Below are positions 21,001-26,115 of a stretch of DNA of 32,000 nucleotides, piece by piece; positions within the stretch are counted from its first letter, which is position 1; every line of letters starts with the position of its first letter. Both the position numbers and the translations under genes were made by a program. Below the pieces are notes generated by a model, which was not told the DNA's origin, made no database searches, and saw only the letters and a program-made list of their open reading frames with translations. Source of the stretch: Puniceicoccales bacterium (GTDB lineage Bacteria; Verrucomicrobiota; Verrucomicrobiia; Opitutales; LL51); contig JAITBP010000003.1 in NCBI GenBank assembly GCA_031283585.1, positions 30,001-62,000 of the forward strand, read 5' to 3'.

Positions 21001-24000
21001 GAATTTACCGCAATGTTTTCGAGGCTAAGCGATAGATTAGCAACCCATGATGTCAGGATGTACAACGAAAAATTGAATTTTGGCGATGAGGAGGTCATGA
21101 TTTCCAACGTAAATATGGCTTTAAAAAACCTCAGTGGCGGTAGTGATCTGCAGAATTTCGCTGGGCTTGCTGAGAAAGCTAGGCAGTTATATGATGCAGC
21201 CCATAATCTTGCTAAAGCCAATGCCAATGGTATGATAAATGAGATAAAGACACTCGGTCCAATTTATGAGACGGCAAAAAGAGAGTATGAAAATGCCAAG
21301 AAAAATACTTCATCTGGCTATGGAAATTATGAATTGTACGTGGAGTCACTGAAAAAATTATTAGATGAAGCCGAAATAGATCTGAAGTACAATATGTCAG
21401 TCCAGCTGGAAAAGGCCGAAAAAGGTGAATTGGTGTCTTCCTATGTGTTTTCCAGCGAAAAATATAAGGCTGCCAAGGAAGTCCTTTCCATTGTAAAGTC
21501 CGTGGATAAAGTAACCAGTGAACTTGATGGTTGCATAGAATCGATGGCTCAAAGAAAAGATTTTCTGTCACTGCTGGATGTAATAGAAAATGGAACATCG
21601 GAGTATTCCCAGGAGGCGATACTGCCATTTACAAAGGCTTGGATTATTGAAAAGTCATCTAAAATGAGGACCTACCAGGGGTGGCGTGGCGATTCCATGG
21701 ACGCTTCGCTGTATAAATCTGCCCTAGCAACTATCAGAGAGGCTACATATTTTGCTAATTCTGAAGAGATCAAATTAATTTCAACCGAATCGCTAAATGA
21801 GTACTTGGTGGCCATGGATTCTGCCCTGGATGATTACGTCAAAGAAATGAAAGACTATGAGCTATATGATGGGTTGCTCAATAATGTGTACGGCTTAGAT
21901 GTATATAACAATGGTAGGGTTCGTGAAATAGTTGGCATTGGAATAAATACAATTATAGCAAACAATGTCGATTGGGTGTTTTCCCAGGCTGGCAAAGAAG
22001 CATTTTTGAAAGAACTGGCAGACTATAGCAAATCGTTGGACCTGATCATAGAATCCTATGATACCGGTGGCATGCTAAATGGTAAGATGAATGCCGCGGT
22101 ATTGAATAAAATAAAGGCACTGCGTAAGTATATAGGAACAGAAGGATCTAACACAAAGAATGACTATATTGGCAGCGTTAATTTGTTCGAGGCCTATGAT
22201 AGTAGTAACTATTCGAAGCTTCAACAGATGTATAAAAGACAGGCAACCACGATAAAGAAAATAGTTAGTGATTATAAGGCTAATAAAATTTCCCTTGAGG
22301 ATTATATGGCAAAAATCGATGAATTACCTTTGGAAGGTGGCCCGTTGGATGATTATGTGACCTCGCTAAAAGAGTTTCTTCAATACTCAAAAGCTTTGCA
22401 AGATTATCAGGTTTCTCTGCTACAGTTACAACCCAAATATTATGTTTACGACAAAAAGCAATCATCCTGGATTACATTGGATGAAAGCGGCATGAACGAG
22501 AAACAGATAAAGGATGCTGGTGGTAAATTTATTAGATTGGTCAAAGGCTACGATGGAGGTGGCAACCCGATCTATCTTGAAAATTATAGTCTAACAGATA
22601 GCATCACCAAACCTGTATTTGTAAGTGCCACTGCCATATGGCATGGAGATTACGAGAGCTATGGTGTTGTAATACAATTACTGGCTACATTGTACGAAAA
22701 ATTTACAACCCAAAAGCAATTACTTGCTGACATCATAAAACAGGTAGAGGAAAATAATGAAAAAATCAAAGAGGCGAATATGATACTGCAAGATATAAAT
22801 AAAGTCCAGGCATCAGCCGCTAAGGCCGGCGAGGATGCAAAGGTAGCCATACCGGCAAACGTGGTGTTGTATTTTGGTAAAAATAAAATTAAGGCACCGA
22901 CGAACCTGTTTTCCAATGACGAAGAACTGGAGAGGTATGATAATTCCAGTTTCAATAAAAGGATGGAATATTTGTCATCCAGTGGTACAGATGCATCGCT
23001 CTTTTTATCCTACATAACCCAGGGACAATTGAAGGTGAAGGATGGCATGAGCCTGATGTTAAGCGATTTGACATCCACCGATTTGCTAGAATTGGGGACT
23101 ATGAAGGAAATGTATGACAAGGTCAGTGGCATCGATAATAAATTCGGAGATGTGGCCAAGTCAATTCAGTCTAAGAATTCTGGCAGAAATATCGCCATAT
23201 TTGCAGCCTTTGCCGCGCCATTTGCGTTACCATTTTTATTGGCTGGACCTCTTGGGATGGCAATTCTTGGTGGTGCGATTCTTGGCCCAGCACTTGGTCT
23301 ATCCATGACAGGTAATCCGGAGAAACTATCCGGTGCAAAGTATTTAACTGCTGGGACAGGAGACAAGTTATTGAAAGCCTATTGGCGGATAAGGACCGAG
23401 CTGGAAGGTAGCTCAACATTACCCAAGGGAGTGATGGATAATTATCTCCAGGGAATGTTTAATGTCATGAACGAGGATGTCCGGGGCTATGCCTTTCCGT
23501 CAAATGATATAACGCCGAATAGAACGAAGAACGATAGTGCAACCGGAGATAATATCAATGGATTTGAAACGGACAGCTATCCTCCTATTACCAATGACTG
23601 GGGAGGCACAGGTCATTATAGCTACGTATCAACCGATACAGCCAGAGCAGGTGGACTTAGCGACGATGAATATAAAAATAACCAAGACGCTGCTAAGATG
23701 ATAGAAGCCATGGAATTGCTAACTCACCAAAAGTTTTTTCACGGCGATGCTGGCGCTCATAAGGAAAATTTCACTGCACCGGACTATGACTATAATGCGT
23801 TTATCATGATGTATAAGTTGGAAGCCATGGTGGATATGTTTGGCGTAGAAGCAACTAATATTGCTGTTAAATATTTAATAGGAGAAAAAAATCGTGCCCA
23901 GACAGTCCTGGCCTTGGATTCTTTGGCCGATGCATCACGGGATACTGGTAGTGGCGATGGGAAAAAGCCCCGGGTATACACCCAGGAAGAAATAACGAAA

Positions 24001-24963: not shown

Positions 24964-26115
24964 ATGGGAGATTCTGTTGATATCAATGTTCGTTCGCTGA
25001 CAGACATATTGTTGTCCGACGAAAAAAAGCGGCTTAGTAATCCTAAAGAAGCAATTACATTGTCGGATATTGTATCAGCAAGGCTGGAGAAAAATATGTT
25101 CGCCAGCACGATGATGTATACTCCCCATGACCACATAAATGAAGTATATCAACCAACTAAATTAGATATCTCAAAAATCGGCACAATAAGCAATGCGGTG
25201 GCCATGCTAATCCTCTCGGCCGTCAGTGCCCAGTTGATGCTGGAGACCCAGATGCAGGGTGTGGAAACCACAATGAATCAGCGTATTTCATCCAGTAATA
25301 CGACGATGAAACAGATAAAGAATAAAATAAAACAGGCAAGGATAAAGACACCGTTTCAGAGGTTTATGAAGTGGCTTAATGGTACGGCCTTCATGAAGTT
25401 TATGCAGACGGAAGCCGGTAAGATAATTATGTTTGCCTTTAGTGTGGTAGCTACGATTGCAGCGGCGGTTGTTACCGTAGTTACCGGTGGAGCAGCTGCT
25501 CCGGCCCTAATCATTATGGCTGCTGCATTGGCGATGCAAATAACGGAGTTTGCCGCGGATAAAAGCATGGGTGAATTGATTACCAGCGGTATGAATGATG
25601 ATAATAAGGCTAAGCTTGCACTTCAAATGGCAATAGACATTGGGTTGATGATTGGTATGAGTGTGGCTTCGGCAAATGCTGCCAAAGTTGGAAATGCCGC
25701 TGTAAAGGTTGGAACAGCGACGGTTAAAGTGGCTGCAAATATTTCTAGTGGTGTATCTAAATTAGCATCAGTTGCTAATGCCATATCAAGGATAGGCGGT
25801 AGTCTTGCAAGGTCTATAGATATTGTTCAAAAGATCCAGAGGGCCTTTTCATCCGTTATGCAAATTTACGGTGCTTTGTATCAACTTGCAGCGGGGATGG
25901 AACAGGCATCACTTACTAAAAACGCCATGGAAATTGATGCGATAAAAACTAGGTCTGATTCCTATGATAAATTCATGAATACTATCCAGGAAGGTCAGAT
26001 GGCAGACATACAATCGTTGGTTAATCTTGTAAAGGACGCTTTTGCCAGAGCTGCCCAGGCAATCCAGGAAAGCGGCGAGGCCGAAAAAGCCATTGCAAGA
26101 AATATCAATGTCTAG
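24964..26115 (+). CDS. Putative T3SS hydrophobic translocator (YopB/IpaB/CopB-like, SctE-type) membrane protein
   Basis: 383 aa and located immediately downstream of the class II chaperone, which is the canonical gene order. A central hydrophobic hairpin IIMFAFSVVATIAAAVVTVVTGGAAAPALIIMAAALAMQITEFAA lies at nt ~25422-25556, and a third hydrophobic segment LALQMAIDIGLMIGMSVASANAA at ~25615-25683. The flanks look helical. The C-terminal tail ...AIQESGEAEKAIARNINV has the pattern of the remembered SipB/IpaB tail ...LQNEADASKFILRQSRA. There is no Sec signal. Confidence 0.55.
   Translation: MGDSVDINVRSLTDILLSDEKKRLSNPKEAITLSDIVSARLEKNMFASTMMYTPHDHINEVYQPTKLDISKIGTISNAVAMLILSAVSAQLMLETQMQGVETTMNQRISSSNTTMKQIKNKIKQARIKTPFQRFMKWLNGTAFMKFMQTEAGKIIMFAFSVVATIAAAVVTVVTGGAAAPALIIMAAALAMQITEFAADKSMGELITSGMNDDNKAKLALQMAIDIGLMIGMSVASANAAKVGNAAVKVGTATVKVAANISSGVSKLASVANAISRIGGSLARSIDIVQKIQRAFSSVMQIYGALYQLAAGMEQASLTKNAMEIDAIKTRSDSYDKFMNTIQEGQMADIQSLVNLVKDAFARAAQAIQESGEAEKAIARNINV

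Follow-up and report, generated by a model that had tools for sequence, protein, structure and literature searches.

In type III secretion systems (T3SS), the SctA class consists of needle-tip, filament or translocon-platform proteins of the EspA/SseB type. Tip and filament proteins, which are small, determine how the host membrane is sensed and engaged by the needle. Substrates of the T3SS are generally unfolded and a few hundred amino acids (aa) long, with exceptions of up to ~3,200 residues. The gene order on the Yersinia plasmid pCD1 is yscY-lcrD-lcrR-lcrG-lcrV-lcrH-yopB-yopD, and that in LEE4 is espA-espD-espB. SseB is regarded as one of the translocon proteins, its aa 38-90 comprising a predicted hydrophobic region and a coiled coil (PMC2873485), lymphostatin (365 kDa) has been reported as a T3SS substrate (PMC4786716), and non-flagellar T3SS (NF-T3SS) are known in Verrucomicrobia (PMC3459982). 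In our literature search, no paper connected type III secretion with Puniceicoccales or injectisomes with giant genes. Here we describe a giant open reading frame (ORF) in a stretch of 32,000 nucleotides (nt) from a Puniceicoccales bacterium (GCA_031283585.1, contig JAITBP010000003.1, positions 30,001 to 62,000), referred to as a whole as the window. The giant ORF is followed by genes for a class II chaperone and a protein with a hydrophobic hairpin. The encoded protein is probably some kind of T3SS substrate, and with about even confidence we assign it as the SctA-class distal needle protein of the translocator operon of a verrucomicrobial injectisome. It is best read as an SctA-class protein that has a hydrophobic segment inserted in it and is preceded on its N-terminal side by ~7,300 aa devoid of recognizable domains.

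The evidence for this assignment comes in part from genomic organization. A sequence-only reading of the window had proposed that the giant gene, the chaperone gene starting after an 11-nt gap, and the gene for the hairpin protein form one compact unit, and this layout was confirmed from the ORFs and the sequence. The order giant end, tetratricopeptide repeat (TPR) chaperone, SseC/YopB-family major translocator is shared by the window and 11 further contigs (L002-L008, L010, L012/13, L014, and L019/20), nine of them from Puniceicoccales/Opitutales metagenome-assembled genomes (MAGs), and a gene for a minor translocator comes next in at least nine of the 11. As the three genes form one conserved unit, the possibility, raised in the same reading, that the giant is a coincidental neighbour was rejected. 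A scan of species-representative genomes with the last ~800 aa of the giant identified nine loci, all in Puniceicoccales MAGs. At each locus the match was the end of a frame that showed no stop up to the border of the retrieved sequence, for lengths of at least 2,039 to at least 4,153 aa. The homologues are colinear with aa 3678-8117 of the window giant, the identity being 23-28% in the middle part and 34-39% within the last 1,300-2,000 aa. The isolate codes of the MAGs may point to a termite gut as their origin, and literature searches for the samples (SRR14710909, JGI 3300042618) gave no result.

The upstream part of the operon is found in contig L016, which carries a smaller giant (P0015, 4,424 aa, cut at the contig end). 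Its genes are ordered cysS, SctY, SctV and a 373-aa protein without a family, and the giant starts 23 nt later. SctV scores 895 bits with TIGR01399 (cutoff 692), while the FlhA model stays under its own cutoff, and SctY scores 83 bits (cutoff 70). Core sct genes, SctV (not FlhA) and SctY, are thus present in a relative of the lineage. The composite operon order sctY-sctV-(373 aa)-GIANT-class II chaperone-sctE-(sctB) matches pCD1 and, from the giant onward, LEE4, which places the giant in the tip/filament (SctA) slot. The 373-aa protein (L016 4182-5303) has a helical N-terminal part of ~110 aa followed by a Pro/Ser-rich, probably disordered remainder, and no family match was found for it. Lying in the lcrR/lcrG slot, it could be a dedicated partner of the giant.

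The giant gene was analyzed for its reality and extent. Nucleotides 7 to 24360 (+) form a single open frame of 8,117 codons without a stop, terminated by TAA at 24358-24360. A 24-kilobase (kb) open frame in DNA of 40% GC cannot arise by chance, so the gene is real. Colinear open homologues are present in at least 12 other contigs, with identities of 23-58%. A complete ortholog of 7,571 aa (P0007) was found by profile search on a 757-kb contig and is colinear from aa 1882 onward, and a closer relative in contig L019 is 58% identical to the window giant. The first six nucleotides of the window (AGAAAC) contain no in-frame stop, so that the ATG at nt 7 is merely the first one in the window. P0007 and P0015, which have true N-termini, have in common a 185-aa N-terminal domain with the motif NPADY..NPFNP..FYE. 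In complete family members an NPF(L/N)(D/P)..FY motif is located at aa 22-41, in the kind of N-terminal region where type III secretion signals and chaperone-binding regions lie. The 185-aa domain is absent from the window ORF, which contains no NPF anywhere, and the alignment offsets to the relatives suggest that ~26-270 residues are missing from its N-terminus. The giant gene therefore probably starts upstream of the window, as the frame is open at the window edge and both the NPF..FY motif and the 185-aa domain are missing. Because the start is unverified, the length of 8,117 aa is to be taken as a minimum. The N-terminus of the giant was also sought in two metagenome scans, one with the N-terminus in the window and one with the N-terminal domain of P0007/P0015, and both yielded nothing. 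No hydrophobic stretch indicative of a Sec-type signal was seen near the visible N-terminus. Searches of the entire giant against Pfam, NCBIfam and PDB sequences gave no match anywhere, and a self-BLAST revealed no internal repeats. The lack of both repeats and recognizable domains is unusual for a bacterial giant.

The conservation of the giant family rises toward the C-terminus and reaches its maximum in the last 60 aa, as is typical for axial T3SS proteins. Over the last ~800 aa, the orthologs can be aligned along the full length (alignment A4). The sequence-only reading had delimited a C-terminal unit of ~450 aa, and the conserved unit is rather this longer one (aa 7317-8117). Two long helices within this module show similarity to axial T3SS proteins. 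The region of the first helix (aa 7557-7632) is matched by the NCBIfam SseB model NF052422 in nine of nine orthologs (best E = 1.1e-7), and Pfam EspA matches the C-terminal modules of seven of the nine (best E = 1e-5). In a profile comparison with hhalign, the module aligned to residues 64-112 of Sakai EspA (E = 0.0078), pairing ANMILQDINKVQ..AKVAIPANVVLY of the giant family with ANLVDAKIADVQ..AKAKLPQDVIDY of EspA. The second helix forms the C-terminus of the protein. Of 29 C-terminal tails, nine match Pfam T3SS_needle_F (best E = 3.4e-4), more than match any other Pfam family, and hhalign aligned the tail family to residues 39-68 of the 73 residues of EscF (E = 0.009). An AlphaFold2 (AF2) model built with 50 sequences contains a 58-residue helix (7554-7611) and a 61-residue terminal helix (8056-8116) with a predicted local distance difference test score (pLDDT) of 67-83. 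Between the two helices lie a low-confidence hydrophobic region and a confidently predicted folded domain, with pLDDT 70-92 over most of its length, for which no fold match was found in PDB.

Hydrophobicity was scanned according to Kyte-Doolittle in 19-aa windows. The only strong hydrophobic stretch of the giant had been placed near its C-terminus by the sequence-only reading, and the scan located it at aa 7726-7769 (maximum 2.14), with 348 residues after it; no other stretch in the 8,117 aa reached 1.5. In 15 of 16 orthologs the same place, 337-382 aa before the C-terminus, is taken by a hydrophobic segment of 20-60 aa that shows no conservation of sequence, and the 4,101 aa of the L007 ortholog contain no such segment. 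As its length is variable, its sequence unconserved and one ortholog lacks it, the hairpin is not the defining feature of the giants, and to judge from these alignments it is a real and lineage-typical feature rather than a family-defining one. It is not predicted to be helical in the AF2 model.

Both helices are also present in ~35 paralogs of normal size (roughly 300-1,300 aa where complete, some from Puniceicoccales). These proteins have no hydrophobic segment, and their similarity to the giants is limited to the two helices. One of them, P0022 (828 aa), has the two-helix core and is encoded upstream of an LcrH-like chaperone gene (80 bits, under cutoff). The operon context of P0022 and the shared helices indicate that the two-helix core marks an SctA-like family occurring in normal and giant sizes. 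By sequence, this core defines a putative new and divergent SctA-like family ranging from ~300 to >8,000 aa. The surroundings of P0022 (L015 9276-15108) resemble a second translocon operon in the same metagenome and encode, in this order, a 230-aa protein, P0022, the LcrH-like chaperone, a protein of 289 aa that matches the SseF/SseG family only weakly and a protein of 286 aa with a weak SseD match.

The genes downstream of the giant belong to known T3SS families. The 173-aa chaperone passes the NCBIfam equivalog model TIGR02552 (LcrH_SycD) barely, with 105.2 bits against a cutoff of 104.8. It also matches Pfam TPR_3 (E = 1.7e-9), and 124 aa of it align to Yersinia LcrH with 24% identity (BLASTP, E = 5e-14), so that the class II identity proposed from sequence alone is borne out by the model and by the similarity to LcrH. 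For the 383-aa protein encoded next, Pfam SseC (PF04888) scored 17.6 bits in the window member (cutoff 30.2, E = 0.003). Within the family, SseC matches five of nine members with a best E of 7.3e-8, and the NCBIfam translocon model PRK15362 matches the major translocator of L003 (E = 1.4e-6). The hairpin proteins of relatives (370-845 aa) form one family with the 383-aa protein (alignment A2), and the hairpin proteins following the chaperone are, by these profile matches, predicted SctE-type major translocators. Together with the chaperone model pass and the SctY and SctV genes upstream of the giant in L016, the SseC matches support the assumption of the sequence-only reading that the unit belongs to a T3SS. 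Besides its hairpin, the 383-aa protein has two further, weaker hydrophobic blocks (Kyte-Doolittle), and it lacks the variable Ala/Glu-rich middle present in relatives. The Ala/Glu/Lys-rich inserts in the middle of the relatives' major translocators are 0-300 aa long and similar to the Ala-rich segment of the giant. The third protein of relatives (~290-340 aa) is a minor translocator by position, and one member matches SseC (E about 1e-5). No minor translocator was found by tblastn anywhere in the 32-kb window. Single-sequence templates are weak tests, and with them hhalign gave no significant result for the major translocator against YopB and EspD or for the minor one against YopD. The [PV]xLxxP motif for class II chaperone binding is absent from the giant and from the major and minor translocators; as even bona fide translocators lack it, this search is uninformative. 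The coordinates of all features are given in Table 1.

Table 1. Features of the giant gene and the two downstream genes, in positions of the window (P0007, complete ortholog of 7,571 aa).
Feature	Position (nt)	Strand	Remarks
Giant ORF	1..24360	+	first ATG at nt 7, frame open to nt 1; at least 8,117 aa
Fast-evolving N-terminal third, aa 1 to ~1,880	7..5650	+	no detectable similarity to P0007; no NPF..FY motif
Ala-rich, GC-rich insertion, aa 4971-5321	14917..15969	+	specific to the window lineage
Conserved C-terminal module, aa 7317-8117 (~800 aa)	21955..24357	+	35-43% identity in eight orthologs
SseB/EspA-like hydrophobic and coiled-coil helix, aa 7557-7632	22675..22902	+	motif LYEKFTTQK..NNEKI.EAN..INKVQA
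Sole strong hydrophobic segment of the giant, aa 7726-7769 (44 aa)	23182..23313	+	Gly/Ala/Pro-rich
Folded domain after the hairpin	23332..24054	+	HQKF, PDYDYNA..MYKLEA and YIDG motifs; giants only
Terminal 61-residue helix, ending ..SNIR	24172..24357	+	most conserved part of the family
Class II (LcrH/SycD-family) TPR chaperone, 173 aa	24372..24893	+	ATG at 24372, 11 nt past the stop of the giant
Predicted short major translocator (SctE, SseC/YopB family), 383 aa	24964..26115	+	70 nt after the chaperone gene
Hydrophobic hairpin of the translocator, aa 149-199	25408..25560	+	51-aa block, maximum 2.57

From the operon slot and the two helices we infer the following sequence of events. The giant would be exported through the needle with its N-terminus first, and the ~7,300 aa of non-repetitive, domain-less sequence would fold outside the cell. 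The last ~800 aa would emerge last, whereupon the EspA/SseB-like and the needle-like terminal helix could pair and attach to the needle at its distal end, in the way that EspA docks on EscF. The ~445-aa insert between the two helices, comprising the hydrophobic segment and the folded domain, would stay exposed. Until export, the hydrophobic segment would be kept shielded in the bacterial cytoplasm, for which the class II chaperone encoded next door is a plausible candidate; thereafter the segment might contact the host membrane or the SctE/SctB pore. The similar I.RN / SNIR tails of the giant and of the major and minor translocators suggest that these proteins have a docking site in common. 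More specifically, and only tentatively, we propose that this polypeptide of ~0.9 MDa is a distal subunit of the injectisome whose last two helices plug into the needle in the manner of EspA or of a needle subunit, and whose >7,000 unique residues and hydrophobic loop form a very large tip structure by which a eukaryotic host, possibly a protist, is contacted or penetrated.

Several results weigh against the assignment to the SctA class. The matches to SseB, EspA and needle models are all partial and far under the curated cutoffs. The window giant itself scored 16.2 bits with Pfam EspA (cutoff 23.4), covering model positions 32-107 of 180, and 18.9 bits with NCBIfam SseB (cutoff 155), covering positions 5-76 of 151, and its own tail gave no match to Pfam T3SS_needle_F. 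The hhalign probabilities are low (about 5%), and the comparison of the C-terminal module with LcrV, a weak test with a single-sequence template, was not significant (E = 0.1). The AF2 model is poor (mean pLDDT 59 with 50 sequences and 40 with 4 sequences), and a Foldseek search of the module against PDB returned no match with E < 1. To our knowledge, SctA proteins are hydrophilic, ~190-330 aa long, and without a hairpin or a 7,000-aa extension. The giant, with at least 8,117 aa and a hydrophobic segment of 44 aa, does not conform to this, and we know of no precedent for the export of a protein of ~0.9 MDa. On the side of the genomic context, the window contains no injectisome genes. SctV and SctY genes next to a giant were seen in one contig only (L016), which belongs to the most divergent branch; the full-length member of this branch (L007) has no hairpin, and L016 ends before the hairpin position. 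Furthermore, no minor translocator gene is adjacent in the window or in L019.

Other roles for the giant were considered. We regard it as unlikely that it is a T3SS-exported, membrane-inserting effector of the Inc, Tir or SseF/G kind, with the N-terminal mass facing the host cytoplasm, the hydrophobic segment inserted in the host or vacuole membrane and the C-terminal helices acting as chaperone-binding or sorting element. The hydrophobic segment, which keeps its position in 15 of 16 orthologs at 20-60 aa, resembles bilobed Inc-type domains, the class II chaperone gene is 11 nt downstream of the giant, and the fast-evolving N-terminal two-thirds fit a host-facing protein under diversifying selection. 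The weak SseF/SseG-family match in the paralogous operon of L015 points the same way, as does the biology of the Verrucomicrobia of the 'Nucleococcus cluster', which are endosymbionts of protists (PMC8204192). However, the giant gene sits in the tip-protein slot and not in an effector locus, and the best-conserved parts of the protein are the EspA/SseB-like and needle-like helices rather than the hairpin. The latter is missing from L007 and from all normal-size paralogs, and it is Gly/Ala/Pro-rich and not predicted helical.

The sequence-only reading had also seen the layout of a translocator in the C-terminus of the giant, which would make it a third pore-forming translocator whose hairpin co-inserts with SctE and SctB and whose cognate partner is the LcrH-like chaperone. 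We consider this role quite improbable. The order helix, hairpin, helical tail beside a class II chaperone agrees with it, and SseB, the closest family, is itself counted as a translocon protein with a predicted hydrophobic region (PMC2873485). The giant and the major translocator also have the I.RN / NIR tail in common (hhalign, 21 residues, E = 0.029), but beyond these last 21 residues hhalign found nothing between the C-terminal module family and the co-encoded major and minor translocator families, and it found nothing between the module and EspD. Pfam SseC matches none of nine giant orthologs, so that the proposed likeness does not hold at the level of homology. Moreover, the hairpin is absent from one ortholog and varies three-fold in length, and a complete SctE, with SctB in most genomes, is already encoded next door. 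The lack of a [PV]xLxxP motif in the giant also speaks against a translocator, although bona fide translocators lack it too. It is very improbable that the giant is a non-secreted cytoplasmic or inner-membrane-anchored protein, such as a scaffold or regulator, that has no more than the operon in common with the translocators. Its size is far past that of proven substrates, and the single hydrophobic segment could anchor it in the bacterial inner membrane; yet the operon position between sctV and lcrH-sctE-sctB is conserved, the sole recognizable segments resemble secreted axial T3SS proteins, no Sec signal was seen, and complete family members share the N-terminal motif at aa 22-41.

Additional observations were made on the tails of these proteins and on the interior of the giant. 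The tails read ..QIYSNIR in the giant (24339-24357), ..AIARNINV in the major translocator (26095-26112) and ..IIRNSVI in the minor translocators of relatives, and their similarity may reflect a common docking or recognition signal. Profile searches of PDB with the C-terminal module (A4), the translocators (A2) and the tails (A8) returned low-complexity helical noise or nothing. A separate C-terminal module was at first considered in L002, where a 783-aa protein (P0001) is called. This candidate was rejected as a gene-calling artefact. Homology extends past the called GTG in the upstream direction until a stop is reached (L002 60-120), and the preceding ORF passes through a GGC run in a different frame, so that a giant ORF is split here by a frameshift of 1 nt. 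The Ala-rich insertion of the window giant contains 155 Ala in 500 aa, has a GC content of 52% against a background of 40% and shows a reversed GC skew. It contains short tandem arrays of 12-21 nt, and spurious antisense ORFs are piled over it. Its absence from the closest relative (L019) and from P0007 indicates that it is recent.

Downstream of the 383-aa gene the opposite strand encodes mnmE, infA and an ABC permease, and these are followed by a 214-aa gene and a gene for a sigma-54 activator. The mnmE gene directly follows the major translocator gene on the other strand both in L019 (11672-11683) and in the window (26116-26122). The 214-aa protein has an acidic tail and no family match, and the sigma-54 activator gene begins 3 nt later. 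The activator has receiver and AAA+ domains and no DNA-binding domain, and the pair (window 30012-31811) is conserved in L019. The lack of a DNA-binding domain had suggested a chlamydial origin of the DNA, which was rejected because a protein identical to the 383-aa translocator is deposited, as hypothetical, from a Puniceicoccales MAG (Verrucomicrobiota, class Opitutia). In L003, an extra protein of 307 aa that resembles a minor translocator and ends ..IIGNMR is encoded just downstream of the operon in divergent orientation (11678-12598, -).

Tip-slot giants of ~5,000 to >8,100 aa are conserved across an uncultured verrucomicrobial clade, and the family offers a first handle on T3SS biology in Puniceicoccales. 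If they are exported, the size limit of the injectisome channel would be pushed up by a cargo ~2.5-fold longer than the largest known, and the question would arise how the gate (SctV) and the chaperones manage such cargo. Export would also suggest a new way to build a host-contact structure. Should the giant indeed be a distal subunit, no larger T3SS substrate would be known, and for the first time a tip protein would at the same time be a giant surface organelle. The range of the two-helix family from ~300 to >8,000 aa should be useful for understanding how axial T3SS proteins tolerate insertions.

Compared with the described systems, the giant shows most similarities to EspA and SseB. The espA gene directly precedes the translocator genes in LEE4, as the giant gene does here. 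EspA/SseB and the giant have in common ~70 aa of hydrophobic and coiled-coil helix, which corresponds to the region of aa 38-90 of SseB (PMC2873485), and both end in a long C-terminal helix. EspA and SseB are only ~190-200 aa long, whereas the giant has at least 8,117 aa, of which ~445 aa with the hydrophobic segment lie between the helices and ~7,300 aa before them, and it matches only the first half of the family models, under their cutoffs. LcrV/PcrV occupy the identical operon slot, in which lcrD corresponds to sctV, lcrR-lcrG to the 373-aa gene and lcrH-yopB-yopD to the lcrH-like gene, sctE and sctB; however, LcrV is a soluble protein of 326 aa without sequence similarity to the giant. 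The terminal helix of the giant ends in a motif like that at the C-terminus of the needle subunits SctF (EscF, MxiH, YscF), but these are ~70-90 aa long, the similarity is weak and the tail of the window giant itself was not detected. With the SctE proteins YopB, IpaB, SseC and EspD the giant shares a hydrophobic hairpin followed by a helical tail beside a class II chaperone, without profile similarity, and the real SctE of the operon is its 383-aa neighbour. Lymphostatin/LifA is likewise very large and reported to be T3SS-secreted (PMC4786716). It differs in being an effector/toxin with glycosyltransferase and protease domains that is encoded outside a translocator operon and is ~2.5 times shorter. 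The claim of the sequence-only reading that the giant lies far beyond known substrate sizes is tempered by lymphostatin as a precedent, as the step in length is ~2.5-fold rather than one from a few hundred residues, and size alone does not exclude export of the giant. The operon is made up of components of known kinds, but a protein of 5,000 to >8,100 aa in the tip slot is new.

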